64,000 nt of DNA from an uncultured Chloroflexia bacterium (GTDB taxonomy: Bacteria; Chloroflexota; Anaerolineae; JAAYZQ01): positions 896,001 through 960,000 of the forward strand of contig CAVOXA010000001.1 in NCBI GenBank assembly GCA_963700285.1, given 5' to 3'. The position numbers and the translations under genes were made by a program. Below, one piece after another: positions 565 to 22,249 of the stretch (position 1 is its first letter; each line of letters starts with the position of its first letter). The notes below the pieces were generated by a model that did not search any database, was not told where the DNA came from, and saw only the letters and a list, made by a program, of their open reading frames with translations.

Positions 565-1524
565 GTGCGGATCCTGCACACTCCGGTCAATATCGCCGGG
601 CAGCCCTACGGCCTGGTGAAGGCTTTGCGTCGACAAGGTTTGGACGCGGAGCTGTTGGTATTCAAAGAGCGGCCTTTTGTGCAAGGTTTTGATCGCAGTC
701 TGCATCTGGAACAGCATCGAACCGGTGTCGCGAAATGGTTGGTGGCGCTCCGTGCTTTTATCCAGGCTGCGCAGGATTATGATCTATTCCACTACCATAC
801 CAGCGTGACGCTGCTCTATCCTATGCATTGGGATCTACCCATTCTCAGGGCACTGGGGAAGAAGATTGTCATCCAGTTCTGGGGCAGCGACGTGAGGGGC
901 AAACGTCCCGAGGAGTTGACCTACTTGCGCTATGCAGATGCGGTCATCGTGGGCAGTTATCACATGTTGGACTATGTGCCCACGGGGGCACACGTCGTGT
1001 TACCTGGCCTTGACCTTGCCCAATGGCCCAGGCCTCAAGGGAGGCAGAGCCAAGCCGGGCCAGTGCGCATTGTTCATGCCCCATCCAGTCGAAAGACCAA
1101 GGGTACCGCCCAGGTGCTTGTGGCTTTGGAGGTACTGCGGGATCGAGGGCTGCCTTTTGAGCTGGAGTTGATCGAAGGCGTTCCTCACGCGCAGGCTGTC
1201 AGGATCTATTCGACCTGTGACATCGCCATTGACCAACTGGTCACTGGCTGGTACGGGATTTTTGCACTGGAAACAATGGCTATGGGAAAGACGGTACTGG
1301 GCTACATTAGTGCGCAAAACGCTGATCGGCTAGAGGGGGCACGGGGAGTGCGTCCTCCTCTGGTGAGTGTTTCTCCAGATACGCTAGCCAGCGAGCTGGA
1401 GTCGCTCATCCTCGATCCAGAGCGACGTTCTGCCTTAGGGGTTCTGAGCCGCAGGTACGTCGAGCACATGCACGACATCGATCGCTCGGCCGAACTGATG
1501 ATCCAGATTTATCAACAGGTGTAA
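565..1524 (+). CDS. Glycosyltransferase family 4 (GT-B)
   Basis: MRILH start, HAPSSRKTKG, and 'DIAIDQL..GWYGIFALETMAMGK' EX7E-like region. Confidence 0.85.
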   Translation: MRILHTPVNIAGQPYGLVKALRRQGLDAELLVFKERPFVQGFDRSLHLEQHRTGVAKWLVALRAFIQAAQDYDLFHYHTSVTLLYPMHWDLPILRALGKKIVIQFWGSDVRGKRPEELTYLRYADAVIVGSYHMLDYVPTGAHVVLPGLDLAQWPRPQGRQSQAGPVRIVHAPSSRKTKGTAQVLVALEVLRDRGLPFELELIEGVPHAQAVRIYSTCDIAIDQLVTGWYGIFALETMAMGKTVLGYISAQNADRLEGARGVRPPLVSVSPDTLASELESLILDPERRSALGVLSRRYVEHMHDIDRSAELMIQIYQQV

Positions 1525-1531
1525 CGTTCAT

Positions 1532-3028
1532 TTGGACGACGACGGCCTTTCCACTCGTATTGTCGCCAGGCGGACCATTTCAAGTTCGGCCTTCCAGATC
1601 GGAGCCCAGGCGATCACTGTTGTCACCGGCTTGACCAGGTCGGTGATCTTGGCCCGTCTCCTGATGCCCCAGGACTTTGGCTTGGTTGCACTCGCCATCA
1701 TCTTTTCCAACTTGGTCTGGAACACGACAGCTCTGGGCATTGACTCGCGCCTTCTGCAGAAAAGGGGGACGGATCAACTGGGGCTGAGCACGCACCTAAC
1801 CCTCCGCATAGCCCTCTCGATCCTTGCTTTTCTGATCCTGCTGGCCATCACTCCTCTCCTTCGATTGGTCTATCCTGACCAGCCTGACCTACCCAGTGCC
1901 GTGATGGCCTATGCAGCCCTGAATGTCCTAAGTGCCTTCAACCTCACCCCCTTTGTGCTGCTCAAACGAAGACTTGCCTTTCGAAGGGTGGCCCTCATCG
2001 GCGTTGTGAGCAGTCTGGCCATGCTGGTCGTAGCGCCTCTGCTGGCCCGGGCTGGTTGGGGTTTCTGGAGCCTTGTTGTCGGCGAAAGCGTCACCGGCAC
2101 GCTAGTCTCTACAGTGGGGCTGTGGCTATTCCGACGACCCATGAGGTTTTCGCTCAGGCTGGACAGGGCCATGGCCAGGGATCTGATCAGCTTTGGCAAG
2201 TTTGTGATGGTGACTCACCAGCTTAGATTTGCTCTGGACCGTTTTGACGACTTCTGGGCGGGTACAGCACTCGGCCAGGTTTCCCTGGGCTACTATTCCA
2301 AGGCCTACGAGTTTGCCACCTACCCGCGGCGGATCATATCCAGACCCCTGCAAGATGTGTTTTTTGCGGCCTATGCCCGTTTGCAGGATGACCGGTTGAA
2401 TCTCTCCAAGATCTTTTTCCGGACGAACAGCTATGTTGTCCGCATGGGCTTCTTGCTTTCTCCTGTGTTGGTTCTCGTAGCCCCGGAGTTTGTCTTCTAC
2501 CTATTAGGCGAGAAGTGGCTGCCCATGGTCTTTACCTTTCAACTGATGATCGTTTACAGCCTCTTTGATCCGTTGCTGGTGACTGCCGGCAACCTTCTCA
2601 CTGCCTGTGAGGCTCCGCAAAAGATGACTCGCGTGCGGGTTGCCCAACTTGTGTTCTTTGTCCCGGCTGTAGTCGTAGGGGCTGCCCTGTGGCAGATCGA
2701 TGGCATAGCGCTCGCGGCAGATGGCATGTTGCTGGTGGGTCTATTGGGCGTCTTTCGGATGACCCGTGCCTTCGTAGACATCTCATTGCGCAGGTTGTTT
2801 CTGGCGCCAGCTCTGGGCCTGGCGGCAGGAGGCAGTGTCTTTCTCCTCGTCTCGCACTTTTTTCAGGCCCGAGGAGATCTCCTTTGGGCCGTTGTGAAGG
2901 GGCTGGCCTATGTCATTCCCTACCTGGTCGTACTACTACTGCTGGAGTGGCGGGACTACCGGACGACGCTTCAGTCTATCGACAGTCTATTCGGGCTCTC
3001 GCGCTTTGTGCGCCGGTCAGCGAAGTGA
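1532..3028 (+). CDS. wzx: Wzx-type oligosaccharide flippase (PST family)
   Basis: ILARLLMPQDFGLVA and LGYYSKAY motifs; about 12-14 hydrophobic segments; 498 aa. Confidence 0.9.
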   Translation: MDDDGLSTRIVARRTISSSAFQIGAQAITVVTGLTRSVILARLLMPQDFGLVALAIIFSNLVWNTTALGIDSRLLQKRGTDQLGLSTHLTLRIALSILAFLILLAITPLLRLVYPDQPDLPSAVMAYAALNVLSAFNLTPFVLLKRRLAFRRVALIGVVSSLAMLVVAPLLARAGWGFWSLVVGESVTGTLVSTVGLWLFRRPMRFSLRLDRAMARDLISFGKFVMVTHQLRFALDRFDDFWAGTALGQVSLGYYSKAYEFATYPRRIISRPLQDVFFAAYARLQDDRLNLSKIFFRTNSYVVRMGFLLSPVLVLVAPEFVFYLLGEKWLPMVFTFQLMIVYSLFDPLLVTAGNLLTACEAPQKMTRVRVAQLVFFVPAVVVGAALWQIDGIALAADGMLLVGLLGVFRMTRAFVDISLRRLFLAPALGLAAGGSVFLLVSHFFQARGDLLWAVVKGLAYVIPYLVVLLLLEWRDYRTTLQSIDSLFGLSRFVRRSAK

Positions 3029-3104
3029 TGGGACCGTTTCCAGGCAGGTCGGCACCCGGTTCACTCGATGGCAGAGCAGCCCGGACTAGCTGTTCCTGAG
3101 GTAG

Positions 3105-4316: not shown

Positions 4317-5989
4317 AGATCTGTGTTGCTATCCACGAGAACCGGGCGCGGGCCGAGTCAGCCTACGCTCTGGCGACGCTCCTGGATCGAGCGGGGCTGC
4401 CCTACCGGTTCGCGAATCATGGGGCCGAAGTGCAGTCCTCGTCATGCCTGTGGCTCCACTATGGCTCGACCGGGTCTGATGCGGCCAACGGCATCATCAT
4501 TCCCGCGGATCATCCGGTCCTGTGGCAAAAGACCGAGCCCAGATATGTGGCGCTGGACGGAGTTCCGATCCTGTATGCGGGCGAGGAGCCATCATCTCTG
4601 TTCCGCCGCCATCACAACCAGGTTCATCTGGCGTTTGACCTGGTTCGCGGGGCTTTCTGGCTGCTGTCGCGACAAGAGGAATTGGGTGAAGGCAATCGAG
4701 ATACGTTCGGGCGATTTGATTGCTCCGGAAGTTGGCTGGTGCGCCATGGACTGGCTGAGGTGCCGGTAGTGGACCTCTATGCGCGGCTGCTGGCCCGGGT
4801 GTTGGTAGAGGCTGCGGACAGTGCAGACCTGCCGCTGCTGCGCAAGCTGCCCTGGCCGCACGGGCAGCGCACCGCTGTTGTCCTCTCACACGATGTGGAT
4901 GATGCAGGACGATTCAGCCCGCGCCAGGGACTGGGCATGCTGCGCAAGGCCATTTCTCAGCGGTCACCGAGGGGCATGGCACGGGGTAGCTACTATACCC
5001 TGGCCGGCCTGGGGCATGCCCTCAGCCGGAAGCCTGATCCTTACTGGAACTTTGAGATGGTGATGGAGCTGGAGGCTGAAGCTGGCTTCCGCTCCACCTT
5101 CTTCTTTGTCCCCGAGATCAGCAGTGCGCGCCGTGACCCGCCCTATGAAGTAGACACACCCCGCTTGCGGGATCTGCTGAGCCGCCTGCGCGAGGGTGGG
5201 TGGGAAGTGGGCGTCCACGGCAGTTTTGACAGCTATCTGGATCCCGAGGCATTGAGAGCCCAGCGTGAAAAGCTGGAGCGGGTCTTGGGGGGTCCTGTAC
5301 GCGGCGTGCGACAGCACTATCTCCGGCTTCAGGTGCCCGATACCTATCGCGCCCAGGCCGATGCAGGGTTCGCATACGACGGCACGGCAGGCTATCGCGG
5401 TACGGTGGGCTTCCGAGCGGGGGCCGCGTTCCCTTTCCACCCCTTTGACTCGGTAACTGGCAGGCAGCTGCCTTTGCTTGAATTGCCGCTCACGGTGATG
5501 GACGGCCCCCTTTTCTGGCAGCTCAATCTCGCACCGGCTGAGGCGTCAGCTCGGTTGCTGGCACTCCTGGAGACGGTGCGATCGGTGGAGGGGCTGGCGG
5601 TGCTCCTCTGGCACCAGCGGGTGTGGCACGAAAAACGCTATCCCGGCTGGTGCCAAGTATACGGCCGGGCCGTGGACTATCTGCGCGAGGATGGCCTTGC
5701 CTGGGTGGCTACCGCGGGCCAGGTTGCTGATTGGTGGCTTGCGCGGGAAGCCGTACAGCTGGAAATGACCAGCGCCAGCGGCCGGGTGCGCCGGTGGTCT
5801 TACCGTGCGGGTGAAGCCGTGGTGGGATTGGTCTTCACTATTTACCATACGGGCGCTGGAAGGGTTACCGTCGCCGGAGCAGAAGCCGTTGTTCAGATGG
5901 TCGAGGATGAGGTCCGGCTTGAATTCCAGGCTCTGGCCGCCGGCCAGTCCTTCGAGATCGAATGGACCGCGGAGGTAGAGGCATCTTGA
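4313..5989 (+). CDS. Polysaccharide deacetylase family protein (DUF7033-type N-terminus)
   Basis: GTGA overlap with the upstream stop; FWLLSRQEE..RDTFGRF, LSHDVD, EVGVHGS, RQHYLR, LLWH. Confidence 0.85.
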   Translation: MKICVAIHENRARAESAYALATLLDRAGLPYRFANHGAEVQSSSCLWLHYGSTGSDAANGIIIPADHPVLWQKTEPRYVALDGVPILYAGEEPSSLFRRHHNQVHLAFDLVRGAFWLLSRQEELGEGNRDTFGRFDCSGSWLVRHGLAEVPVVDLYARLLARVLVEAADSADLPLLRKLPWPHGQRTAVVLSHDVDDAGRFSPRQGLGMLRKAISQRSPRGMARGSYYTLAGLGHALSRKPDPYWNFEMVMELEAEAGFRSTFFFVPEISSARRDPPYEVDTPRLRDLLSRLREGGWEVGVHGSFDSYLDPEALRAQREKLERVLGGPVRGVRQHYLRLQVPDTYRAQADAGFAYDGTAGYRGTVGFRAGAAFPFHPFDSVTGRQLPLLELPLTVMDGPLFWQLNLAPAEASARLLALLETVRSVEGLAVLLWHQRVWHEKRYPGWCQVYGRAVDYLREDGLAWVATAGQVADWWLAREAVQLEMTSASGRVRRWSYRAGEAVVGLVFTIYHTGAGRVTVAGAEAVVQMVEDEVRLEFQALAAGQSFEIEWTAEVEAS

Positions 5990-7128
5990 GCCGGCGCGTT
6001 GTTATGCTCGTCTCTAACGCTTGTGCTCCTGACCGCAGGGTGCTTCGTGAGGCTCGGGCCCTGGCAGAGCGCGGCCATCAGGTGCGGGTCATTGCCTGGG
6101 ACCGCCAGGGCCGCTACCCCACCCGGGAGACGTTCGACAGGGTAGAGATTGAGCGGATCGCAGTGAGATCGGCATACGGGACCGGGCTGCGCAGGCTGGC
6201 CCAGTGGCCTGCCTATGCCCGTCGCGCATTGGCCCGTCTGCACCAGGAAGACTGGCACGCCGTTCATTGCCACGACCTGGATACCTTGCCCATTGGCTAT
6301 GCCTATTGTCGTCGCCGCAGTATACCGCTCGTCTTTGATGCACACGAGAGCTACCCCGATCTGATCGCCCCTCAAGTGCCGGGCTGGGCCGTCGCGGTTG
6401 TCCGGTGGATGGAACGCTTTCTGGTTCGGCGTGTGGATGCATTGGTCACGGTTGGTGACTTGTTGGCGGACCATTACCGCCGCTGGGCCGCATGGGTGGT
6501 CGTGGTGCGAAACTGCCAGCCGTTTGCACCGGCACCATCGGAACCAGTCCCCCAGCGTTCTGAATGGGGCCTTCAGGATGCGGAATTGGTTGTGTGCTAT
6601 GTAGGGGGTTTCACCAGGGGACGTGTGATCCTGCCCCTGATCGAAGCGGTGGTGGCCGATCCTTCCGTGGGCCTGGTACTCGTGGGTGAGGGCCCGCAGG
6701 CACAGGCCCTGATGAACGCCATTGGAGATTCGAGCAGGGTCGCCTACTTGGGTCCACGGGTGCCAGCGGATCAGGTGGTGAATATCATGAAGGCCGCCGA
6801 TGTGGTATACTATGGCCTGCGATCCGATTTTCCCAACAACTGCTTCAGTTCACCCAACGCCCTCTACAGCGCTCTGGCTGCCGGGCGCCCGCTGCTGACG
6901 ACCGATGTGGGGGAAATCAGCCATATCGTGAGGGCAGAGGGCTGCGGTCTCATCCTGCCGGAGCCGACTGTGGAGGCCCTGGGCTCGGCCCTGGCAGAAC
7001 TGCGGGAACCTGAAGCGAGGGCAGCCATGGCACAAAGCGCGCTACGTGCCGGCGAAACCAAGTACAACTGGGCTGCCGCCGAGGCTGCCCTGCTAGAGCT
7101 TTACCGTGGCCTGTGGGGGAATGTATGA
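5986..7128 (+). CDS. Glycosyltransferase family 4
   Basis: TTGA overlap; DRRVLREARAL, HCHDLDTL, VFDAHE, SPNALYSALAAG. Confidence 0.85.
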   Translation: MSRRVVMLVSNACAPDRRVLREARALAERGHQVRVIAWDRQGRYPTRETFDRVEIERIAVRSAYGTGLRRLAQWPAYARRALARLHQEDWHAVHCHDLDTLPIGYAYCRRRSIPLVFDAHESYPDLIAPQVPGWAVAVVRWMERFLVRRVDALVTVGDLLADHYRRWAAWVVVVRNCQPFAPAPSEPVPQRSEWGLQDAELVVCYVGGFTRGRVILPLIEAVVADPSVGLVLVGEGPQAQALMNAIGDSSRVAYLGPRVPADQVVNIMKAADVVYYGLRSDFPNNCFSSPNALYSALAAGRPLLTTDVGEISHIVRAEGCGLILPEPTVEALGSALAELREPEARAAMAQSALRAGETKYNWAAAEAALLELYRGLWGNV

Positions 7129-8198
7129 AAACCGTGACCATTGTCGGGGCCCGTCCCCAGTTTATCAAGGCGGCACCTGTCACCAGGTTGTTGCGACGGG
7201 TGGTCAAGGAAGTATTGGTCCATACTGGACAGCATTACGACCAGCAGATGTCGGCCGTCTTTTTTGACGAGCTACAGATTCCGGAGCCTGACTACAATCT
7301 GGGCGTGGGTTCTGGTTCCCACGGTTGGCAGACCGGACAGATGCTGATCCGCATCGAGGAAGTGTTGCTGGCGGAACAGCCCGACTGGGTTCTCGTCTAT
7401 GGTGATACGAACTCGACGGTCGCCGGTGCGTTGGCAGCAGTCAAGCTTCACATCCCGGTGGCCCACGTCGAAGCCGGCCTGCGAAGCTACAACCGCCGCA
7501 TGCCTGAGGAGCACAACCGGGTACTGACCGACCATGCTTCCGATCTGCTCTTCTGCCCGACGGTGACGGCTGTGAACAATCTTGCGCGCGAGGGGATCGG
7601 GCAGGGCGTGCGCCTGGTTGGCGACGTGATGTACGATGCCCTACTCTTTAATGCTGAGCTGGCTGAAAGGCACACCACCGTGCTGGATCGCCTGGAACTG
7701 GAGCCTGGAGGATATGCCCTGGCCACCCTTCATCGTCCGCACAACACGGACGATCTGGAGCGTCTGCAAAGCATTGTCGCCGCATTCTCCGAGATCTGGT
7801 TGCCCGTGGTCTTTCCAGTCCATCCTCGTACCCGCCAGCGGCTGGTTGATGCCGGTCTGGAGTCTCGCCTGGCCCAAAGCCATCACCCCAGGCTCATTGA
7901 TCCTGTTGGCTACCTGGATATGCTGGCACTGGAAAAGAATGCCAGCTTGATCCTCACGGATTCAGGGGGCGTACAGAAAGAGGCATACTTTTTTGCTGTG
8001 CCCTGCTTGACCCTGCGCGAAGAGACCGAGTGGGTGGAGACTGTGGATGCCGGCTGGAACCTATTGGTCGGCGCAGATAGGAATGCTATCATCGGGGCGG
8101 CCCGCTGGTTCAAGCCTGAGGGCATTCCACCGCTCAGTTTTGGCGATGGCCATGCCGCTGGACAGATCGTTGAGGCTCTGGTGGGGAACAAGGCTTGA
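7125..8198 (+). CDS. wecB: UDP-N-acetylglucosamine 2-epimerase (non-hydrolysing)
   Basis: GARPQFIK, HTGQHYD, GDTNST, HVEAGLRS, PEEHNR, TDSGGVQKEA. Confidence 0.95.
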   Translation: MKTVTIVGARPQFIKAAPVTRLLRRVVKEVLVHTGQHYDQQMSAVFFDELQIPEPDYNLGVGSGSHGWQTGQMLIRIEEVLLAEQPDWVLVYGDTNSTVAGALAAVKLHIPVAHVEAGLRSYNRRMPEEHNRVLTDHASDLLFCPTVTAVNNLAREGIGQGVRLVGDVMYDALLFNAELAERHTTVLDRLELEPGGYALATLHRPHNTDDLERLQSIVAAFSEIWLPVVFPVHPRTRQRLVDAGLESRLAQSHHPRLIDPVGYLDMLALEKNASLILTDSGGVQKEAYFFAVPCLTLREETEWVETVDAGWNLLVGADRNAIIGAARWFKPEGIPPLSFGDGHAAGQIVEALVGNKA

Positions 8199-8236
8199 GG
8201 GTGGAGCCCCTCCAGTTTTCGATGAGGTGCTAAAGC

Positions 8237-9466
8237 GTGCGCATTCTTTATTTGAGCCAGTACTTCCCACCCGAGGTGGGCGCCACTCAGACGCGTGCCT
8301 ACGAAATGGCGCGCTACCTGGTGTCGGTTGGGCACCAGGTGACGATGCTGACCGAGGTACCGAACCACCCTTCCGGCATTATCCCGCCCGAGTACAGGGG
8401 CAAAGCCTATGAGCGGGCCTCTTTGGATGGAATCGACGTCATCCGTGTATGGGTCAAGGCGTCGCCTGTGAAGACTCTTTCCACGCGGATGATGTTCTAC
8501 ATAACATACATGATCAATGCTGCGCTGGCGGGTTTGCTTCTGGCACGGGGGCGCTATGATGTTGTCTATGCCACGTCGCCGCCACTTTTTGTCGGGGGGG
8601 CAGCCCTCGCGCTCAGCTATCTGCGGCGGATCCCCCTCTTTTTTGAGGTGCGCGATCTGTGGCCCGAGTCGGCGGTGGTCCTGGGGGAAATATCAAGTTC
8701 CCGAGCAGCGGCACTGGCTGGCAAACTGGAAGAAATGTGCTATAATAGGGCGCGTTGCGTCGTGGTTGTCACTGAGGGCATCCGCCGCCGGCTGGAGGAG
8801 CGAGGGTTCGGCGCTAAGCTGGCGCTCATTCCTAATGGGGCCAACACAGAGCTGTTCCGTCCGGATCCAGAGGCGGGCGCGGCGCTGCGGTCGGAACTAG
8901 AGCTGGGTAGCAGGTTTTTGGTCATTTATGCGGGTATACACGGCGTGGCCCAGGGGTTGGAAACTGTTCTCGAGGCCGCACGAGTGCTGCAGGACGAGCC
9001 CGATATTCATTTCCTTTTTGTTGGAGAGGGCCCTCAAAAAGGCGATCTGCTGAACCAGCGGGACGCTCTGGGATTGGCCAATGTTACGATGTTGGCTGAG
9101 CAACCTCGGGACTCTATGCCGGCCTATATGTCTGCGGCTGAGGTGGCCCTGGTGCCTTTGCGGAGACTGGAACTCTTCCGGGGAGCGCTGCCGTCCAAGA
9201 TGTTTGATGCTTGGGCCTGTAGCTGCCCGGTTCTCTTGAGCATCGATGGCGAGGCGCGCCAAGTTCTGGAGCGGGCTGATGGCGGAGTCTTTGTCGAACC
9301 GGAAGATCCCGAACAGATGGCCCGGGCCCTGATGCAGCTCAAAGGCGACCCCGGACAGCTGCGTCAGTTTGGGAAGAACGGGCGGTGTTTCGTCGAGGAA
9401 CACTACTCTCGCGAGCGGTTGGCGACCCAATTGGAAGCATTGCTGCGGGCGGCAGTCCAAGGTTGA
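8237..9466 (+). CDS. Glycosyltransferase family 4, WbuB-like
   Basis: SQYFPPEVGA, ATSPPLF, EVRDLWPES, LPSKMF. Confidence 0.9.
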   Translation: MRILYLSQYFPPEVGATQTRAYEMARYLVSVGHQVTMLTEVPNHPSGIIPPEYRGKAYERASLDGIDVIRVWVKASPVKTLSTRMMFYITYMINAALAGLLLARGRYDVVYATSPPLFVGGAALALSYLRRIPLFFEVRDLWPESAVVLGEISSSRAAALAGKLEEMCYNRARCVVVVTEGIRRRLEERGFGAKLALIPNGANTELFRPDPEAGAALRSELELGSRFLVIYAGIHGVAQGLETVLEAARVLQDEPDIHFLFVGEGPQKGDLLNQRDALGLANVTMLAEQPRDSMPAYMSAAEVALVPLRRLELFRGALPSKMFDAWACSCPVLLSIDGEARQVLERADGGVFVEPEDPEQMARALMQLKGDPGQLRQFGKNGRCFVEEHYSRERLATQLEALLRAAVQG

Positions 9467-9481: not shown

Positions 9482-10507
9482 ATGAAGATTCTCGTAACCG
9501 GCGGGGCTGGCTACATCGGATCCAATCTGGCGGCCGCCTTGATTGCGGGGGATCATGACGTCTTTGTCATCGATAACCTGTCCACTGGCAAGATCGCGAA
9601 TATCCAGCACCTGCTGGACCACGAGCGGTTCCATTTTGTCAATGATACGATCCTGAATGATGCACTGATTGATCGCATCGTTGCCCAGGTTGACCAGATC
9701 TATCACCTGGCAGCAGTAGTCGGTGTCAAGTATGTGCTCGATGACCCCTTGCATGGCATCTATACCAACGTCAAAGGCACAGAAGTCGTGTTGGAGAAGG
9801 CCTACAAGTATTGGCGGCGCACCGTCATTGCTTCCAGCTCTGAAGTCTATGGCAAGAGTGCGGCTGTGCCGCTTTGCGAGGATTCTGATCGACTGCTGGG
9901 AGCGACGACCGTGGCTCGATGGTCCTATGCCATGGCCAAGGCCATCGACGAGCATTTTGCCTTTGCCTATGCCGACAAGGGTCTGCCTGTCTCGGTGGTG
10001 CGCTATTTCAACTCCTACGGCCCGCGCTTGGATCCCAAGGGCTATGGCAGTGTCATCGCCAAGTTTGTCACCCAGGCCCGTCTTGGTCAGCCGATCACGG
10101 TCTTTGATGACGGCCAACAGACGCGCTGTTTTACGTACGTGGATGATACGGTGCGCGGCACCATCCTGGCAGGTACTGTCTCCGCTGCAGCGGGGAAGGT
10201 GTTCAACATCGGTTCCAGCCGGGAGATCAAAGTCGTGGACCTTGCACGGATGATCCGGGAGTTGGTAGCTTCAGACTCTGAAATCATTCTGCAGCCCTAT
10301 CGAAACGTGTTCGGCGAGAATTTTGAGGAGACGAGACGCCGGGTGCCCGATGTCCGGCAGGCTGAGGCAACGCTAGGTTTTCGCGCAGAGACCCCCCTCG
10401 AGGAAGGGTTAAAGAAAACAATCTCCTGGTTTCGGGACGCTTGGCCCCACGAGAGGTTAGACCCTGGATGCTCTAACCTGGCAGGTTTTTTTGATCTCAG
10501 CAAATGA
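9482..10507 (+). CDS. NAD-dependent sugar epimerase/dehydratase
   Basis: GGAGYIG Rossmann motif, HLAAVVGV, SSSEVYGK, WSYAMAK (YxxxK), RYFNSYGPR. Confidence 0.9.
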   Translation: MKILVTGGAGYIGSNLAAALIAGDHDVFVIDNLSTGKIANIQHLLDHERFHFVNDTILNDALIDRIVAQVDQIYHLAAVVGVKYVLDDPLHGIYTNVKGTEVVLEKAYKYWRRTVIASSSEVYGKSAAVPLCEDSDRLLGATTVARWSYAMAKAIDEHFAFAYADKGLPVSVVRYFNSYGPRLDPKGYGSVIAKFVTQARLGQPITVFDDGQQTRCFTYVDDTVRGTILAGTVSAAAGKVFNIGSSREIKVVDLARMIRELVASDSEIILQPYRNVFGENFEETRRRVPDVRQAEATLGFRAETPLEEGLKKTISWFRDAWPHERLDPGCSNLAGFFDLSK

Positions 10508-10580
10508 CATTGGAGAGTGGCAGCGTCTTGCTCGTTGTCTTGGGGCGTCCAACCCAAGGCAGGAGTAAGACCAGGCGCTG

Positions 10581-13500
10581 ATGCGAACGAGACTGAGCGT
10601 CTTCTGTGACAAGATCATTGAGGCAGGTTGGCTGGCGGCTGTGATCGTTGTGCCGCTCTTTTTCAACATCTATTCCCAACGTGTTTTTGAGCCGGACAAG
10701 CTCTCCCTGCTTGCGCTCCATTGCTCTTGTCATGAGTGTCGCTTGGGTGATCCGCGAGATCGAGGACTGGCGCGCCAACCAGGGCGAGGGGGATGGCCAG
10801 GGCCCCCGGGTTCCCTTTTGGCAGCGGGTAGGTGAGACCCCCCTGGTGTTGCCCACGCTTTTCCTGGTTCTTGTCTACCTGATTAGTACGGCGACCTCCG
10901 TGGTTCCGTGGGTCAGCTTCTGGGGTTCGTACCAGCGCTTGCAGGGCACCTATACCACGTTGTCGTACATCGTCATATTTTTCCTGGTCCTGCAGGGACT
11001 GCGGACCAAGAGACAGCTCAACCGGCTCATCACGGTCATGGTCCTGGTCAGCTTTCCGATTGCCCTCTATGCCTTGATCCAGCACTTTGGCCTGGATCCA
11101 TTGCCTTGGGGGGAAACGTCACCACTCGCGTCGCGGCCAACATGGGCAACGCCATCTTTGTGGCCGCCTATCTGATCATGGTTGTACCCTTGACTCTTTC
11201 GAGGTTGCTTCGAGAATTGGAAGGAGACTGTGGGGTACTTGGATACTCGGGATGGCGTTCTGGGACTGGTGGCCTTTGTCCTTCTGGCGGGCGCCCTGCT
11301 GGTGGGGATGCTCTGGCCTGTTGAGGGAGGCGGCCCCTGGTTGCGCTGGGCAGCCTTGCTGATCGGGATCGGCCTGCAGGCGCCGATCTATCTTCTTAGC
11401 CCGGAAGAGCGGCGCCCTCGCGTGCTGGCCATCTCCCTTCCCCTGACCTTTGCTTTCCTGGTTGGCTTTTCCTGGATTCTCGAGATCTTTTTTCCCCCGG
11501 CCAGTCCCAACTTTTTCTGGCTGGGCCTGCTGGCTTCGGTCATTTTTGTGCTGGCCATGTTCGCCTTTGCCTTCTATCTGCGACAGGCCTGTCTCTCGGC
11601 TGCTGCTCTTGGCTGGCTATTCTGTGATCCTCATTGCCCAGATCGTTGCCATCTTTTACACGCAGAGCCGAGGCCCACTGCTAGGTCTTCTGGCTGGCCT
11701 GTTCTTTTACCTGGCCCTGTTGGGCTTGGTCAAGCGGACGTGTATGGCTTCCATGGCTGATGAGCGCTCTGGCTGTTGTGGTGCTTGTCTTCCTGGTGAT
11801 GTTCAACACCGTCGAATCTCCGGTCATGGAGATCCTGCGCGAAGTGCCCTACGTTGGGCGTCTGGGCAAGGTCCTGCAGACCGAGACCGGAACCGGCAAG
11901 GTCCGTGTACTGATCTGGGAGGGTGCCGTCGAAATGATCGGCTGGCACACCCCTCTGGAGTACCGTGGGGGAGGAAGGCGGTCCAGATCCCTTCAATCTG
12001 CTGCGCCCTATCATCGGCTACGGCCCTGAGTCGATGTACGTGGCCTACAACCGTTTCTATCCGCCTGACCTGGCTCACTTTGAGAGGCGCAACGCCTCTC
12101 CTGACCGGTCGCACAACGAGACCTTTGACGCGCTGGTCATTACCGGGGCATTGGGCTTTGTCGTCTATATGCTGGCTATTCATCAGCGTGTTCTACTATG
12201 GCCTCAAGTGGCTGGGGCTGATCCGGGAACGCTGGCAGCATCTAGGTTTCGTGGGGTTGTTGGTTGGGGGAGCCATCGCTGGGGGCTACTGGCCTGGACC
12301 TGGCGCGGTCCACCCTACGTGGGCCTGGGCATTGCCGCTAGGTACGGTCGGCGGGTTGGCCGTCTATGTCTTTATTGTCCTCGTCATCGCGACACTCGGT
12401 CCGCGGGGGAAACAAGATCGGTTGCAAGCGCCTTTGAGTGGAGCCTCTACCTTGGGAATGCTCGCATTGTTGTCGGCAGTACTCGCGCATTTCGTCGAGA
12501 TCAACTTTGGGATCGCCATCGCCGCGACCCGTACCTATTTCTGGGTCTTTGCGGCCTCGATGGTCGTCATCGGGACGCGCCTGGCAGTGGAGCCCGCGAC
12601 CCAAAAAGATGTGGAAAAGGCGACGGCAACTATTTCTGAGCTTTCTGGTCAGGTCAGCGAGCATTCCACGCAACGGGATCAGCGGGAGCGCCGGCGGCGC
12701 AAGGGAGCTGATCCCGAGCGGCAGGCACCGCGAGCAGGCAATCCAGACTGGCTCGGCGAGATCCTGGTACTGGGTGTGGTTTCCATTCTGATCCTCGGCA
12801 CGATGATCTTTGACTATGTCACGGTTCAGGCCGGGAATCCGGGGACGCTGGTCACCATCTGGGACTCTCTTACGCGGGCCGCGGGAGAATCATCGCCTGC
12901 CATCCTGGTGTTAATGCTCGTCACTTGGGCCATGATCGCCCTGATTGGCCTGAGCGAGCTGGCCACACGGCCAGAGTCGGAAGGCAGAAAGCCGGCTGCT
13001 TGGCTGGCTGCGGCAGGTATCCTGGGCTTCGTCTCCCTTGGATGCGTGTTCATCTTTGCCCTATTGCACGCGCTGCAACTCAAGCCGGTGACCATCACGG
13101 CTATTGATGAGCCCAACCCTTTGGCCAATACCATCACCTTCTACTACTTCTTTGTGATGCTGGCGATCCTGGCTCTCGCTTTGGTGCTCACCAGCCTTTT
13201 CCAGCGTCGAATCAGAGCGTGGCGTTGGACCCGGTCGCCTGGGGATGTGGCTGTCATCGCCACAGCTGTGGCGCTGCCCCTGCTGGTTGTGGCTCTGATT
13301 TTGACTACCAACGTCAATGTTGTCCGCGCTGATGTCCTGCACAAGCAGGGACTAAGCTCCGAAAGGGCCAAGTTGTGGGACGGGGCGATCTTTTTTTACG
13401 ATCAGTCCCTCGCCCTGGCCGAGAAGCAAGATCACTACTATCTTTTTCTGGGCAAAGCGTACATGGAAAAGGGCCAAGCCGCCCAGGGGGCAGAGCAGCA

Positions 13501-15205
13501 GGCATTGCTGCAGGAGAGCGAGCGTGCCCTGCTCAAGGCGCGTGAGATAGCTCCTCTCAATACCGATCACTCGGCCAACCTGGCCAGATTACATAGCGCC
13601 TGGGCGCGGTTGACCCAGGGCGAGGAGCGAGCTGACCATCTCAGCAAGGCTGTTGGCTACTACGCCGATGCCACCAGGCTTAGTCCAAATAGCGCCCAGC
13701 TCTTTAACGAATGGGCGCAAACCTACCATGTTCTGGGGGATCTGGACCGGGCTGAAGAGATATACGGCAGATCCTTGATCCTGGACGATGAGTTTGAGAA
13801 AACCTACGTGTATTTGGCCGACCTATACGAGGCGCAGGGGAAAGAAGACGAGGCCATCAATGCCTATGAGCGAGCCATAGAAATCAAACCAGAGTCGCTG
13901 CAGGCCTATCTGCTTTTGGCTCAATTATATATAAAGTCAGAAATGTGGAACGAGGCGGCGCAGATTTACCAGCGTGCCATCGAAGTCAATCCCGGGGCAG
14001 CGGATGCCTACAGTGGACTGGGCTATGTCTATTCTCAGGTGGGAGACCTGGAGCCGGCGCTGGCAGCCTATCTGGCTGCTGTGGAACTCCGTCCCAGGAG
14101 TTTCAACGAGCGGAAGAACCTGGCCATTCTCTATCAACAGATGGGGCGGACGGACGATGCTGTCCGCGAAGGGACTCGAGCCCTGGACCTGGCACCTGCC
14201 GATCAAATACCCGCCATAGAGGGTTTTCTAGCCCAACTGGGAGCCCTGAATTTCAAGGCTTCAGCAGAGGACAGCAAAGAGGTCCAGCAGCTCATTGCGC
14301 AGGGCAGTATCCAGATGGGCGCCGAAGATTGGGACTCCGCCGAAGAGACTTTTGAGGCGGTTTTGGATCTTGCCCCAGATAGCTCCTATGGTCATAGCGC
14401 GCTGGCATACGTATATGCCAAGCAGGGCCGGCTGGATGAGGCAATCGCTGAGAACGAGGTGGTCGCCGGGCTCATGCCTGACGACTACAATAGCTTCAAG
14501 AATTTGGCACTTCTCTACGAACAGAGAGGGGATGTGGAGAGCGCGATTGGGGCAACCGAAAGGGCACTGCTGCTCGCCCCGGAAAACGAAGTGCAGGCCC
14601 TCCAGATCTTTTTGCAGCAGCTCAGACAGCAGAAAAGTCCACTGCCAGCAAGGGAGGAGGATCGACGTGCTGGCGATATGCTGCCGGTTGAGCGTAATTT
14701 CATGTATGCTTCACCGCCGCCGGTGATCATCGAGCCCAACAAATCGTACCAGGCAACCATTGTGACTGAAAAGGGCGACATCGTGCTGGAACTGTATGCC
14801 AGCCGGGTGCCTAAGACCGTCAACAACTTTGTCTTTCTGGCCCGCGAGGGATTCTACGATGGCACAACCTTTCACCGGGTCATTCCTGGCTTTATGGCCC
14901 AGGCGGGTGACCCGACGGGAACCGGCACAGGGGGACCTGGGTACGCCTTTGCCGACGAGTTTGATGCTACGCTGCGCCACGATGGGCCGGGTGTGGTCTC
15001 GATGGCCAATGCCGGTCCTGACACCAATGGTAGCCAGTTCTTTGTTACCTTTGCGGATGCACCATGGCTGGACGATATACACGCGGTGTTTGGGCGGGTG
15101 ATCGAAGGCCTGGACGTGCTGGAATCCTTGACCCCGCGCGATCCCCAGCAGAACCCTGCTTTCGCGGGCGACAGGATCAGGACGATCATTATTCAGGAGG
15201 AGTAA
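10581..15205 (+). CDS. O-antigen-ligase (Wzy_C)-like polytopic membrane protein + multiple TPRs + C-terminal cyclophilin PPIase; several frameshifts in the 5' third
   Basis: Consecutive in-register pieces (10581, 10648, 10908, 11230, 11450, 11760, 11965) give [35 protein letters not shown] and RSHNETFD. From about 12320 there is one continuous frame with TM helices, about 12 TPR-like repeats and [15 protein letters not shown]...[15 protein letters not shown]...VFGRV. Confidence 0.8.
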
Positions 15206-15346
15206 CGATCTGGTCTATTCTCTGTTTGGTGCGCAAAGCTGTCCTCTTTTTCCGCCAGGGCGGTCGCTACGTATCATCTCCGTCCAAGGCCGCATCGGAA
15301 GGATGGCGAGTCTGGCTGTGACACAGGGGAATGGCCGGGAAAGATC

Positions 15347-16372
15347 ATGACCACCACTTTCATGCTTATCTTTGCCAGCGCGCTGGTGTTGGCCATCGGC
15401 GGTACGCCGGTGGTCCGCCGGGTCGCGCTGCGCCTGGGTGTCATCGACCGAGCCCAATGCGCGCAAAATCCACGTCGATCCCATCCCTCTGCTGGGTGGG
15501 GTGGCCATCTATGGCGCTCTTTATCGCGCTACTGCTATTTGGCAACCGATTTCGTCTGAACGAATTGATCGGCATCCTGGTCGGCGCCAGCCTGATGTCG
15601 TTCCTGGGCGTGTGGGATGACCGGCGCAGTCTGAGCCCGCTCCTCAAGCTGGCTGGGCAGTTCCTGGCGGCCTCGATCCTGGTGCTCACCGGGGTGCGCA
15701 TCGGCACCTTCCCCTGGGAGACCGTGAACATCATCGTCACCCTGGGCTGGGTGGTGGTCATCACCAACGCCATGAACCTGCTGGACAATATGGATGGCCT
15801 GTCGGGCGGCGTCGGTGCCGTGGCCGCCATCTTTTTCCTGCTGCTGGCAGCCATGAACGGCCAGTACCTGGTCGGCGCGCTGTCGGCCGCACTGGTGGGC
15901 GCTTGCCTGGGTTTTCTGGTCTACAACTTTAATCCGGCCAGCATCTTTATGGGCGACGCCGGCAGCCTGTTTCTGGGATTCATGCTGGCTGCGGTGGGCA
16001 TCAAGCTCCGCTTTCCGGAGGGCGTCGAGATCGTGACCTGGATGGTGCCGGTTCTGATCCTGGGCTTGCCCCTGTTCGATACCACACTGGTGATCCTCTC
16101 CCGCCTGCGGCGCGGCCTGAACCCCCTGACCACGCCGGGCAAGGACCACGTCTCGCACCGGCTGGTGGCCATGGGCTACACCCGCCGCGAGGCGGTGCTC
16201 ATCTGCTATCTCATCTGTGCCGGCCTGGGCGTGATCGCCCTCTTTGTCACCCAGGCCAGCATCGTCGAAGGCTATGTCGTCGGTGGCGTCGTGGCCCTGG
16301 CTGCCCTGTGGGGTCTGTGGCGACTGGAGCGAGTGGACTTCCCGGGCAAGGAGGTGCGAGGCAACTTTCTGA
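15347..16372 (+). CDS. Undecaprenyl-phosphate GlcNAc-1-phosphate transferase (WecA/TagO, MraY-like); frameshifted near the 5' end, 3' end approximate
   Basis: [51 protein letters not shown]. Confidence 0.85.
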
Positions 16373-16396
16373 ACGGGAGAAAGGTCACACTGATGG

Positions 16397-17750
16397 ATGA
16401 CACTGGCCACCAAAATCGCCGAGAAATCGGCCCGGGTGGCCGTCATCGGCCTGGGCTACGTGGGCCTGCCGCTGGCCGTCGGCTTTGCCAAGGCCGGGTA
16501 TCCGGTCGTTGGGCCTGGATGTGGACGAGCGCAAGCTGGCCGCCCTGAACGAGGGTACGCAGCTACATCCAGGACGTGGAGACCGCCGACGTGGCGGCCG
16601 TGGTCCACGCCGGCCGGTTCTCTGCCAGCAACGACTATGACCTGCTGCGCGACGCCGACGCCATCTTTATCTGCGTGCCGACGCCCTTCGACGCCATGAA
16701 GGCGCCCGACCTGGTCTTATGTCGAGCAGGCGGCGCGGGGCATCGCCCCCCGCTTGCAGCCCGGCCAGTTGATCATCCTGCAGAGCACCACCTATCCCGG
16801 CACGACCGAGGAGTTTGTGCTGCCCATCCTCGAGGAATCGGGCTTGCAGGCGGGCGAGGACTTTTACCTGGCCTTCTCGCCAGAGCGGATCAACCCCGGC
16901 GACCAGCAGTTCACCGTCGAGAACACGCCCAAGGTCGTGGGCGGCCTGACGCCGCGCTGCACCGAGCTGGCCCGTCTTCTGCTGGCCCAACTCTTTGCCC
17001 ACGTCCACGTCGTCTCCTCGCCCGCGCGCCGCCGAGATGTCCAAGCTGCTGGAGAACATCTTTCGCAGCGTCAACATTGCCCTGGTCAACGAGCTGGCCC
17101 TGCTCTCCGAGCGGATGGACATCGACCTGTGGGAGGTGATCGAGGCGGCCAAGACCAAGCCCTTTGGCTTCATGCCCTTCTACCCGGGTCCTGGCGTGGG
17201 CGGCCACTGCATCCCCGTGGATCCCTACTATCTGAGCTGGAAGGCCCGCGAGTACGACTTTTATACCAAGTTCATCGAGCTGGCCGCCGAGGTGAACCAG
17301 GCCATGCCCTACCACGTCGTCGACCTGGTGGCCCAGGCGCTGAGCCAGCAGGGCAAACCGCTGGATGGAGCGCGGGTGCTGATCCTGGGCGTGGCCTTCA
17401 AGCGCGACATCGACGATGCCCGCAACTCGCCGGCGGAGCGGATCATCGAGCTGCTGCTCAAGCGCGGGGCCGAGGTCAGCTACAGCGACCCCTACGTGCC
17501 GCGCTATCGCGTCGGCCGGGACGTCTTTTACCGCGGAGGAGCGCTGGCTGGAGAGCGTGGATCTGACGGACGAGGTTCTCGTGGCCTGCCGACTGCGTCG
17601 TCATCGTCGCCGGGCACCAGGTCATGGACTATGCCCGGGTGCTCCGCCACGCCTCCGTGGTCGTGGACACGTGCAACGCCACCACGGGGCCTGGGCGGCG
17701 CCGCGCGTGTGGTCCGCGTCGGCGCTCCCTTGCCAGAACGCACGAACTGA
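16397..17750 (+). CDS. Nucleotide-sugar dehydrogenase (UDP-GlcNAc/ManNAc 6-dehydrogenase family), frameshifted
   Basis: [69 protein letters not shown], spread over several frames. Confidence 0.9.
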
Positions 17751-18338
17751 TGACCGAAACCCAGCCGCCCGAATCCTCACCCAAGACCTCATCCTTCTGG
17801 ACGGCGACAGTTCTTTCGCGTCCTGGTCATCCTCGCTGGTGCTGGGTATCAGCGTCGCCATTTTTGCCTTCCGCGACCGCTTTGCCGAACTGGCAGCCAT
17901 CGGCTATCCGGGCATCTTTCTGGTGAGCCTGCTGGGCAACGCCACCATCATCCTGCCTGCACCCAGCCTGGCTCTTGGTCTTTGCCATGGGCAGCGCCCT
18001 GCCGCCGCTGCTGGTCGGCCTGGCGGCCGGCGTCGGCGAGGCACTGGGCGAACTGACCGGCTACGCTGCAGGCTTTGGCGGGCGGGCCGTCATCGAGGAC
18101 TATCAAGATGTACCAGCGCCTGGTGGCCTGGATGGAGCGGCGGGGGGGCATCACGATCTTCGTGCTGTCCGTGATCCCCAACCCCTTCTTTGACCTGGCC
18201 GGCATCGCTGCCGGGACGCTGCGCTATCCCCTGTGGCGGTTTCTGCTCTTCTGCTGGCTGGGCAAGACGCTCAAGACGACGCTGGTGGCCTGGGCCGGCG
18301 CCAGTCCGTGTTCCCTCATCGAACAGTTGCTCCACTGA
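17750..18338 (+). CDS. VTT/DedA (SNARE-associated) membrane protein, frameshifted
   Basis: TGATG overlap with the upstream gene; LGNATIILPAP, GEALGELTGYAAG, IPNPFFDLAGIAAG. Confidence 0.8.
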
Positions 18339-18428
18339 GCCTGGCCCGTCATCGAGTCAGCCTTTGCCTCCTGGGCAGACCTGATCCATGGACCCCGGAA
18401 GCCCCGCGGGGTCTGTGACGCTTTCGAC

Positions 18429-19144
18429 CTAGATTTCGACGGTCTCCAGGGGACGCGTGGTGCCGACCAGCGATGCCCAGCTCCGCCTTGTGGATCGCCT
18501 GCGACAGCTTGCGCGGCGTGCCTCCGAAGGTCATCAGCGGCCCGAGCGTCATGCCGCTGTAGTGGGTCGGCACGACGACGCGCGGCTCGCCCAGGAGCCA
18601 GAGCGCCTGTGGCGCCTTTTGCGGGCCAATGTGGCCGAAGGGCATGCCCAGCGCTGTGCAGGTCGCCAATGGGCAGCAGCACGGCGTCCAGGTCCCAGCG
18701 CTGGCCAATCGTGCGAAAGAGGTTCGCGGTCCAGGGAGGTATCGCCGGCAAAATAGACGGTCCGGTCGCCCTCGACGACCAGGCCCAGCTCGCCGCCGGT
18801 GTGTTTGGCCGGCACGGCCGTCAGGCGAAGCCCTCTGAACTCGGCCGATTCCCAGGCCTCGCACGCCACGCAGCGCCTTCAAGCCCCAGCCGGGAGCCTT
18901 GTGCACCTTCTCGGCAGGCATCCACACCGGGGTGTCGGGCGGCAGCCGCTTCAGGACTGACGGCGCAAAGTGATCGACGTGGGTGTGGGAGATGAATACC
19001 AGGTCAGGCCGGGGCATCCGTTCGAAGGTGTAGGACTTGGGCGCCTGGTGGATGCCCAGCATACGAAAGACCGGGTCGGTGATGATCGTCAAGCCCCTGC
19101 GTCTCGATGATGGTCATCGACCAGCGGATGTAGGTCAGTTTCAT
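18429..19144 (-). CDS. MBL-fold metallo-hydrolase (UlaG/RomA-like), frameshifted
   Basis: [22 protein letters not shown] (HxHxDH), AVPAKH, YFAGDT, VPTHY; ends PLETVEI*. Confidence 0.8.
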
Positions 19145-19224
19145 AACTTTTCCTCCCCAGGAAGGACAGAAGATCCGAGCGATTCGGGTGGGCCTTGACC
19201 CACAGTTCCTGCCTGTCCGCCGTC

Positions 19225-20622
<1,398 letters not shown>

Positions 20623-20974: not shown

Positions 20975-22249
20975 ATGAACAATCAAGAGCATATCAGTGA
21001 AGCAGAGCATACACCCACTCAGGAAGGTGAGGACCGTCGTGTATGGGTCGTCATTGGTGTGCTGGCGGTTTTCCTGATCGCGTGTATCTGCGTCCTTGGC
21101 CTGGTCATATCCTACTTTTTATTCTCTGGTCAGGACAGTGCGACCCAGCCAGGGCCAGTTGAGCCGGCGCAGGTTTCTCTTGAACAGATCCAGAACATCA
21201 ACTGGCAGTGGGTTGAATTGACTGAAACCGAGCCCGCGGGCCAATCCCTTGTGCCCGAACCCTATGACTATACCCTGGTGTTCCTGCCCGGCGGTCAGTT
21301 TACTTTTAGGGCAGATTGCAACGTCGGCAGTGGCGTGTTCACCGTGGATGGCAGCACTATGGCCCTGCAGTTGGGGCCGGTCACCATGGCCGAGTGTGGG
21401 CCAGCGTCCATGTCCAACCAGTTCATGGGCCTGCTGGGTAGCGTGGCTACCTACGGAGTGGAGGGCGGCCGCCTGGCGCTTGGGCTGAAAGAGAACGTGG
21501 GCTTCATGATCTTTGACAACGGCGGCCCGGCCCAATCTGTTGGATCACCAGGGGCGGCAACCCCGACCCCCCAACTGGCGCAACCAACGGCGACGATGGG
21601 CGTTCTGCCACTGGCCATTCCTAGATTTCCCCCTGAAGCAGGGCTGGGTATGGAAGCGATGTTCGACGGCAGCCAGTCCCAGCCCGGCAGCAGTCCCATT
21701 GTTCGCTACTTGTGGGAGTTCGGCGACGGGACCAGTGTTGAGGGGGCGACAGTGACCCATGCTTACGCAGTGTCTGGTGTCTATGCGGTGACCCTGGCAG
21801 TGACGGCTGAAGATGGCCTTGGCAGCAGTGCGACGGGGCAGATTGTGATCACTGAGGGCCAGCCGCCGGTACCCACGCAGGCACCGGAAGCCGCACCGAC
21901 GACGGAACCTGCGAGTGGGCTGGTGGGTCTGACGTGGCGGTGGTCTGAACTCATCGAAGAGGGGGAGCCTTCCACCGTGGCAAACCCTCAGAATTATACG
22001 TTAAGGTTCGAGCCGGATCTCACCCTGCAGATCACAGCTGACTGCAATACTGGGGTTGGCACATACGCAGTGGATGGGGAACGCATCAGACTGGACTTGG
22101 GGGGCGTCTCGCAGGCTGAGTGCGGGCCAGATTCTCTTTCTGGACAGTACCTGGAGCTGCTGCAGACGGTCGACGAGTATGAATTGGATGAGGGATTGCT
22201 CCTTCTGTATCCTACGGAGGTCGCCGACCGCATGGTCTTTGCCCCCTAG
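20975..22249 (+). CDS. Membrane-anchored META-PKD-META domain protein
   Basis: N-terminal TM helix; two META repeats (ADCN.G.G...T.AECGP.S); central PKD (YLWEFGDG...HAY..SGVYAVTLAV); P/T/A-rich linkers. Confidence 0.8.
   Translation: MNNQEHISEAEHTPTQEGEDRRVWVVIGVLAVFLIACICVLGLVISYFLFSGQDSATQPGPVEPAQVSLEQIQNINWQWVELTETEPAGQSLVPEPYDYTLVFLPGGQFTFRADCNVGSGVFTVDGSTMALQLGPVTMAECGPASMSNQFMGLLGSVATYGVEGGRLALGLKENVGFMIFDNGGPAQSVGSPGAATPTPQLAQPTATMGVLPLAIPRFPPEAGLGMEAMFDGSQSQPGSSPIVRYLWEFGDGTSVEGATVTHAYAVSGVYAVTLAVTAEDGLGSSATGQIVITEGQPPVPTQAPEAAPTTEPASGLVGLTWRWSELIEEGEPSTVANPQNYTLRFEPDLTLQITADCNTGVGTYAVDGERIRLDLGGVSQAECGPDSLSGQYLELLQTVDEYELDEGLLLLYPTEVADRMVFAP

Follow-up and report, generated by a model that had tools for sequence, protein, structure and literature searches.

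Introduction

The described protein closest in layout to the one analyzed here is WsfB of Paenibacillus alvei, a predicted S-layer O-oligosaccharyltransferase (O-OTase) in which a Wzy_C domain is followed by C-terminal tetratricopeptide repeats (TPRs) (PMC2943079; here and below, statements with a citation refer to excerpts of the cited papers). In WaaL, the ligase of O-antigen, R191 and R265 bind phosphates and H313 is the proposed base, and O-ligases differ from most of the clan's polymerases in carrying two Arg and a His in place of Asp/Glu (PMC10920833); the O-OTase PglS uses H324 and E379 (PMC12800693). Chloroflexota are classically described as a phylum without lipopolysaccharide (LPS) (PMC3971608), and in one member, L. 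aerophila, densities on archaellin Thr66 and Thr145 were read as likely O-glycans (PMC12488501). The enzyme for such likely surface-filament O-glycans is not named in the passages of the literature examined. Here we describe a gene from an uncultured Chloroflexia bacterium, found in a 64,000-nucleotide stretch of contig CAVOXA010000001.1 (the window), in which a Wzy_C-type ligase, a TPR array and a cyclophilin are joined in one protein. The original prediction, made from the sequence alone, was that this is a protein O-OTase whose fused peptidyl-prolyl isomerase (PPIase) prepares Pro-Thr-rich acceptor peptides.

Results

The ligase-TPR-cyclophilin fusion is real and was seen in two families of Anaerolineae, f1 and f98. 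Loci were fetched from 15 of the 22 other genomes of family f1, and in 13/15 of them the three parts lie in one frame, with no stop before the cyclophilin in these close homologues; of the remaining two loci, one is ended by the contig before the cyclophilin and one is frameshifted. A search with the C-terminal 338 residues returned 317 long proteins, and when the architecture was sought across genomes, as had been proposed, at least 101 of the 120 homologue clusters listed joined ligase, TPR and cyclophilin in one chain, with SRG and RSHN present and the cyclophilin at the C-terminus. The few named clusters among those were from Anaerolineae or Chloroflexota, and 66/66 further loci were titled as Chloroflexota or subgroups thereof, mostly Anaerolineae. 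Far commoner is a ligase-TPR gene that lacks the cyclophilin: of 7,999 candidates, 3,788 matched at E<=1e-30, and a cyclophilin was present in 0 of the 120 such matches listed. The N-terminal part of the ligase was matched in 50/201 genomes sampled across the phylum, the ESM Atlas contains similar Wzy_C+TPR clusters in Chloroflexota (and in other phyla as leads only), and an N-terminus search for shorter proteins gave mostly partial records. The source databases label the fused proteins by domain only. In line with the original remark that no enzyme of this architecture was known, no description of a cyclophilin-ligase fusion was found in literature searches of limited coverage (mostly listings and abstract starts, few subscription papers and no supplements). 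As a separate observation, one locus has two ligase-TPR genes in tandem (L128:7992-14000). Apparent ligase-TPR-WecA fusions in L154 and L105 were rejected as their junctions are runs of N, and a 2,177-aa "open frame" in G443 was resolved into separate genes.

In the window the gene is not one frame as assembled, since nine single-base indels lie between 10710 and 12332, so that the 1,251-aa open reading frame (ORF) starting at 11450 is a composite of different frames. Over positions 12333-15205, up to the stop, where the final membrane helices, TPRs and cyclophilin are encoded, the frame is unbroken and free of frame-changing indels, as had been claimed for the TPR-to-cyclophilin junction. The same-genus genome G001, 89% identical to the window copy at the DNA level, has the gene as a single 1,537-aa ORF; the earlier description of one gene of about 1,500 aa holds for G001 but not for the window copy as assembled. 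Compared with G001, codon positions 1/2/3 have 29/13/103 substitutions in the broken part, and the genes adjoining the ligase gene carry similar indel patches. Independent contigs that three public DNA runs yielded for close relatives have none of the nine indels, and one such contig, with 1 differing letter in 205, is without the indels at 12282 and 12331. The best public run held a 0.14 share of the sampled words, and this check rests on close relatives rather than on the exact strain. Based on the codon pattern, the neighbouring patches, the indel-free relative contigs and the intact G001 ORF, the nine indels are probably assembly errors, a conclusion that is strongly argued for but short of proof. 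Relative to G001, single-base indels are dense at 10500-12340 and 15300-20600 of the window, where gene calls are unreliable, and almost absent at 1500-9000 and 12340-15300. An RNA run gave only two 151-base contigs, both at the 3' end of the gene, which have no bearing on expression.

It had also been suggested that the cyclophilin could have an internal or separate start. A Shine-Dalgarno-like run, GGAGGAGG at 14653-14660, and an ATG at 14678 are indeed present. The run encodes Arg-Glu-Glu-Asp, a start-type codon is found at the 14678-equivalent in 3/12 intact homologues, and a GGAGG/AGGAG motif is found in 0 of those three in the 35-codon stretch examined. As neither the run nor the Met is conserved, an internal start at 14678 was ruled out and the caveat was dropped.

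To describe the membrane part we used the intact G001 copy, for which an AlphaFold2 model of residues 1-1100 reached a predicted local distance difference test score (pLDDT) of 91.5 and a predicted TM-score (pTM) of 0.93. In this model the membrane core has the WaaL fold, as WaaL (7tpj_B) aligns to residues 6-669 over 384/403 residues (Z 13.5, root-mean-square deviation 4.5). The remaining structure matches listed were TPR and helical-repeat proteins, Foldseek gave only TPR proteins among the matches listed, and the ligase loop as a single-sequence query had no match among solved structures. PF04932, split into two frameshifted halves in the window, scores 52.6 bits (cut-off 31.7) in G001, and with a GT-C fold and two Arg and a His in predicted outside loops the protein shows the features of the O-antigen ligase superfamily. 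Arg363, Arg441 and His510 (Table 1) would be equivalent to R191, R265 and H313 of WaaL, judged by order and spacing rather than by residue-level superposition. The Asp/Glu that replaces the ligase His in most Wzy polymerases was not found, His510 being invariant. Nor is the lipid A-core acceptor of WaaL proper expected in the host, as LpxC was found in 0/23 family genomes (71-95% complete; control genomes positive 4/14), which agrees with the original statement that Chloroflexota lack LPS. The motifs named there (SRG, GYGPE, RSHN and those of the cyclophilin) were all in place, at the coordinates given.

Averaged hydropathy gave 23 helices for the whole protein. With the N-terminus assumed to be inside, Lys+Arg amount to 48.7 over 12 inside loops vs. 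13.1 over 10 short outside loops, and the predicted outside parts then include the SRG loop, the Wzy_C loop of 109 residues and the C-terminal domains. The odd number of extra transmembrane (TM) helices, five between the core and the first TPR throughout f1 (Table 1), likewise argues for a C-terminus on the outside. In unfused sequences the corresponding number is five in 19/22, seven in 1 and even in 2; in sequences of the second clade it is nine in 9/16, seven in 1 and eight in 6, and at a lower threshold nine in 12/16. Core insertions arrive mostly as helix pairs. Helix parity and charge bias together thus predict the TPRs and the cyclophilin to be on the same side as the catalytic loops, a point that the original prediction had named as a check on itself. 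The array comprises 11 TPR-like helix pairs and 2 capping helices in two blocks in the AlphaFold model, close to the "about a dozen" repeats first counted. The first TPRs pack rigidly onto the membrane domain in the model and contain five residues (D913, K917, D946, N989 and D991) that are invariant in 106/106 aligned sequences. A model of residues 338-1537 gave a pTM of 0.67, a drop that may partly reflect the cutting of N-terminal helices, with low-confidence hinges at 1219-1224 and 1349-1356 around TPR block B. Because of this pTM and these hinges no fixed docking is predicted, and the cyclophilin is modelled as well folded but on a flexible tether.

The cyclophilin proved intact, as originally claimed: it scores far above the PF00160 cut-off (Table 1), and 13/13 active-site and pocket positions checked are canonical (positions follow what we take to be the human CypA numbering). 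The catalytic Arg, Phe and Gln are retained in every fused cyclophilin aligned, so that the isomerase motif is intact and PPIase function is predicted. Cyclophilins of the same subtype, 66-68% identical to that of the window, were also seen in three SecDF proteins of ~990 aa (P0100-P0102), where they are inserted between PF21760 and PF22599 within the P1 domain on the outside. No description of such a cyclophilin-in-SecDF fusion was found in our literature search, and the insertion points to a general foldase for export that readily switches its anchor.

Unfused relatives give an indication of how the fusion arose. In unfused Anaerolineae loci a cyclophilin gene is found downstream in at least 21/74 within the fetched DNA, a lower bound because many contigs end early (the count sums 8/23, 6/42 after 16 duplicates and 8 cut genes were dropped, and 7/9 hand-picked loci). 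A lipobox, or a basic N-terminus with one membrane helix, is present in 18/21 of these cyclophilins, one more is ambiguous and two have no signal. In two loci the cyclophilin is directly behind the ligase stop codon. In family f98, 6/9 genomes have a ligase-TPR gene, an initiator gene and then a separate anchored cyclophilin, and in 3/9 the cyclophilin is fused. The fused and separate f98 cyclophilins form one clade (support 0.93), apart from the f1 cyclophilins. In f1 the appended piece consists of TPR block B plus cyclophilin, and residues 109-419 of a free TPR-cyclophilin lipoprotein paralogue align to 1226-1536 with 58% identity.

A single clade of all fused ligases was rejected (approximately unbiased (AU) test, 1.8e-52), as was a single clade of fused cyclophilins (AU 0.005). 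The fairer test, with f1 and all f98 ligases as sisters, was not rejected (AU 0.28), and the ligase tree by itself therefore did not establish an independent origin. Separate fusions, likely two or more, are argued for by the order of the genes, by the differences in anchors and in numbers of TPRs and helices, and by the cyclophilin tree. Along the ligase tree of f1 the cyclophilins switch between two subtypes (subtype B in 25/112 proteins), and therefore the cyclophilin domain has been exchanged while the fusion persisted. The best reading of the gene arrangements observed is that the ligase probably captured an already exported, co-operonic cyclophilin.

Further cyclophilins were noted around these loci. 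Free TPR-cyclophilin paralogues are found at L063:9507-10559 (G000 C1:131509-132450), L059:9870-11132 (with a lipobox) and L060:5821-7665, and in G016 the cyclophilin of the paralogue groups with the fused copy of the same genome (support 0.99), which suggests recent gene conversion. Long lipoproteins are encoded behind the ligase operon at L037:11686-13674, L038:12810-14159, L153:7343-9223 and L131:13919-15322. Cyclophilin domains joined by Pro/Thr-rich linkers number three in L037 and at least two in L038 and L153, and one domain each in L037 and L038 is without the catalytic Arg.

The ligase gene is embedded in a glycan cluster with a recurrent order (Table 1). Variable glycosyltransferases (GTs) and sugar-modifying genes, with Wzx in several loci, precede the epimerase and the ligase; after the ligase come the WecA/MraY-family transferase, the nucleotide-sugar dehydrogenase, the cyclophilin if unfused, DedA and often a gene that from its sequence we take to be valS. 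The DedA/VTT gene ends the operon in most loci. The pair of ligase and initiator is kept in 5/7 loci from other classes, and upstream GT sets differ widely between loci with the ligase conserved. MraY was found in 21/23 family genomes. The genome of the window has ~11 Wzy_C genes, 6 Wzz matches, 5 LCP genes and 16 PMT-family matches. No Wzz was found within ~95 kb of the locus, the nearest PF02706 match being ~95 kb away on the contig; the five LCP genes are elsewhere in the genome, with none near the locus, and none of the cluster ORFs scanned was recognised as a separate polymerase. With crude ORF calls from the same genome, Pro/Thr-rich segments were seen in 29/92 lipobox ORFs vs. 100/4,222 ORFs without export signs.

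Table 1. Features of the ligase gene and its neighbourhood (window coordinates; residue numbers as in G001).
Feature	Position	Strand	Remarks
Whole gene: WaaL-fold ligase, extra membrane helices, TPR array, cyclophilin	10581..15205	+	~1,540 aa
WaaL-like membrane core	10581..12592	+	G001 residues 1-669; 18 predicted TM helices incl. 4-helix insertion
Arg363 (SRG), putative pyrophosphate-binding residue	11669..11671	+	invariant in 106/106 aligned sequences
Arg441 (KVRVLIW), putative second pyrophosphate-binding residue	11904..11906	+	invariant in 106/106
His510 (RSHN), putative acceptor-activating base	12112..12114	+	invariant in 106/106
Glu638, short predicted outside loop	12497..12499	+	invariant in 106/106
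Five extra TM helices behind basic cytoplasmic loop	12755..13303	+	5 in 68/68 family f1 sequences
TPR block A, 8 helix pairs + cap	13310..14239	+	akin to TPR tail in unfused relatives
TPR block B, 3 helix pairs + cap	14273..14632	+	with cyclophilin, matches free TPR-cyclophilin lipoprotein paralogue
Cyclophilin + N-terminal extension	14663..15202	+	PF00160 159.6 bits (cut-off 21.7); domain 14711-15202; catalytic Arg codon 14876
Wzx-type flippase of upstream glycan cluster	1532..3028	+	PF13440 187.5 bits
GT4-type glycosyltransferases + UDP-GlcNAc 2-epimerase	5962..9466	+	variable cluster part
NAD-dependent sugar epimerase/dehydratase	9482..10507	+	usual upstream neighbour
WecA/MraY-family undecaprenyl-phosphate (Und-P) sugar-1-phosphate transferase	15346..16400	+	PF00953; frameshifted, ends approximate; most constant downstream neighbour
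Nucleotide-sugar dehydrogenase	16397..17750	+	frameshifted in window
DedA/VTT-domain membrane protein	17740..18338	+	PF09335 in orthologues; frameshifted, start approximate

Elsewhere in the window, a membrane-anchored META-PKD-META protein with Pro/Thr-rich linkers (20975-22249) is a nearby candidate acceptor. Genes at 3105-5989, within the glycan cluster, are ATP-grasp-like and polysaccharide-deacetylase-like (DUF7033) and suggest an amino-acid-modified sugar, these family guesses being made partly by inspection. A second locus of the same genome (L061:5857-14965, G000 C5) encodes, besides two Wzy_C proteins and a GT, a cyclophilin lipoprotein (12706-13305) and a member of the PMT family (13397-14965), and is a further link of cyclophilin to lipid-linked glycosyltransferases.

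Discussion

Taken together, our results lead us to favour, as a tentative first choice, a WsfB-like WaaL-fold protein O-OTase for exported proteins, to which the cyclophilin is loosely tethered as a general foldase. That the acceptor is a protein, be the isomerase coupled loosely or tightly, is somewhat probable. It is favoured by the lack of lipid A, by a TPR arm predicted outside with invariant residues and by the WsfB precedent, and further supported by the likely Thr O-glycans on L. aerophila archaellin. Of the original prediction, the architecture, its conservation, the absence of lipid A synthesis and the outside position of the TPRs and cyclophilin are supported, with protein as the likeliest, inferred, acceptor class. 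The part in which the PPIase prepares acceptor peptides as a required step, found no support, since none of the 120 ligase-TPR relatives listed has a cyclophilin, and it is further weakened by fused and unfused genes in one family and by the two low-confidence hinges.

In the favoured mechanism, the WecA-like neighbour would, with the GTs encoded upstream, assemble a short glycan linked to undecaprenyl pyrophosphate (Und-PP), which Wzx would flip, as judged from their gene families. Arg363 and Arg441 may hold the pyrophosphate and His510 may activate a Ser/Thr/Tyr hydroxyl, by analogy with WaaL and PglS. The first TPRs are the likely client-binding surface, because of their rigid packing on the membrane domain and their invariant polar residues. 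An exported, membrane-anchored cyclophilin of the same operon would have been fused, with its own anchor replaced by the ligase, and likely serves the same exported proteins as a general foldase that transfer does not require. DedA, possibly an Und-P flippase, would presumably recycle Und-P. The Und-PP-oligosaccharide donor, the protein acceptor, client binding by the TPRs and the sharing of clients with the cyclophilin are all parts that we infer.

Several points weigh against this reading. Acceptor, glycan and transfer activity are predictions, the kinship with WsfB follows a described domain layout and not sequence, and no PglL-type Wzy_C_2 (PF11846) was matched, the Pfam scan of residues 1-910 giving PF04932 alone. 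The Z of 13.5 is near chance level for helical bundles, though the alignment spans nearly all of WaaL, and the helix count of the second clade is even in 6/16 sequences at the main threshold. As to the origin, a cyclophilin is nearby in 21/74 unfused loci and several long loci are clearly without it, 7/7 loci from other classes have none nearby, and 2/21 downstream cyclophilins are without an export signal. With ~11 Wzy_C genes and 16 PMT-family matches, glycosylation could also use other enzymes. PMT-type enzymes modify Pro/Thr-rich linkers in Actinobacteria, and the 16 matches are a rival route for glycosylating Pro-Thr linkers.

The strongest competitor, though itself unlikely, is a non-protein acceptor such as a glycolipid or wall polymer, where the cyclophilin merely uses the ligase as an outer-face anchor after a fusion of neighbours. 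WaaL's own acceptor is a glycolipid, GT121 enzymes in Gram-positives were proposed to ligate capsule to peptidoglycan (PMC10920833), and both the presence of MraY and the two cyclophilins right behind a ligase stop codon would fit. The cyclophilin subtype also occurs on SecDF and on TPR lipoproteins and therefore moves freely between anchors. However, a protein client agrees better with a large TPR array on the outside that has invariant residues, the five LCP genes could link polymers to the wall, and the fusion is kept in ~100 clusters and has survived the exchange of two cyclophilin subtypes. A Wzy-type repeat-unit polymerase for a surface polysaccharide is improbable: PF04932 includes some polymerases and the cluster has Wzx with no separate polymerase recognised, but His stands at the position of the putative base instead of Asp/Glu, Wzz is absent within ~95 kb, and GT sets vary while the enzyme is conserved, which fits a donor-tolerant ligase.

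Tight coupling, in which the cyclophilin sets the X-Pro geometry of Pro-Thr-rich acceptors at or near the transfer site, like PPIB beside P3H1 in collagen processing, is in our view doubtful. The shared predicted membrane side, the intact active site in all fused copies aligned, the probable repetition of the fusion and the enrichment of Pro/Thr-rich segments in lipobox ORFs are consistent with it, as are the preference of PglL for disordered Ala/Pro-rich sites (PMC12645811) and the P3H1/CRTAP/PPIB active sites that face each other ~20 A apart (PMC11381544). It is at odds with the thousands of ligase-TPR-type matches, without a cyclophilin in any of those listed, with fused and unfused f98 sisters side by side, and with a model that predicts no fixed docking. 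We give the same low standing to its boldest form, a single-chain machine whose TPR arm threads Pro/Thr-rich proteins between isomerase and transfer site, so that proline geometry gates O-glycosylation, and whose ligase-TPR core is the general protein O-glycosylation enzyme of Chloroflexota. That the cyclophilin serves mainly as a chaperone for the very large membrane protein it belongs to, or for partner enzymes of the envelope, is very improbable; it is tethered in cis and the outside loops have many conserved prolines, yet similar-sized unfused relatives do without it. Least probable of all is a decaying pseudogene or an artefact of assembly, which the nine indels and the limited strain coverage of the public runs (at most 14% of sampled words) would allow, but which is contradicted by the indel-free relative contigs, the codon-position pattern, the patches in neighbouring genes and the single frame in most family loci.

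The conserved pair of ligase-TPR and WecA-like genes, across Anaerolineae and other classes, offers a testable O-glycosylation candidate, and a Thr-directed or TPR-guided OTase would be useful for glycoconjugate engineering. The cyclophilin has moved onto the ligase, probably more than once, and fused vs. unfused sister genomes form a natural control for whether prolyl isomerisation affects bacterial O-glycosylation. The single-chain machine, if true, would have evolved independently as a one-polypeptide parallel to eukaryotic modify-and-isomerise complexes.

The combination of Wzy_C and TPR is already known, and the cyclophilin fused on top of it is the new element. By description, though not by sequence, the window protein resembles WsfB, with its Wzy_C domain and C-terminal TPRs, and also the predicted S-layer O-OTase of Geobacillus stearothermophilus, where the TPRs are in the adjacent gene product WsaA next to WsaB (PMC2943079). 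These systems share a monoderm host and a clustered initiating sugar-1-phosphate transferase with ours; in contrast, the window protein has 23 predicted TM helices, 11 TPR pairs and the cyclophilin, its cluster has Wzx instead of Wzm/Wzt, and an S-layer acceptor was not identified. The likeness to WaaL (GT121; PDB 7TPJ) lies in the fold (384/403 residues), in two Arg and a His in the same order and in the large outside Wzy_C loop, whereas the host family is without a lipid A pathway and the protein has a 4-helix insertion, five extra C-terminal helices, TPRs and a cyclophilin. With PglL/PglS it shares a WaaL-like core, a His with a downstream acidic residue and an outside C-terminal domain, but differs in having no Wzy_C_2 match, a monoderm host and a tethered isomerase. 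A possible connection of TMTC3 with cyclophilin B was considered but dropped for want of support. The human P3H1/CRTAP/PPIB complex (PMC11381544) similarly combines a modifying enzyme, TPR scaffolds and a cyclophilin on the export side, by analogy only, as its enzyme is unrelated, the window system is a single chain, and the facing active sites seen there are not predicted here.

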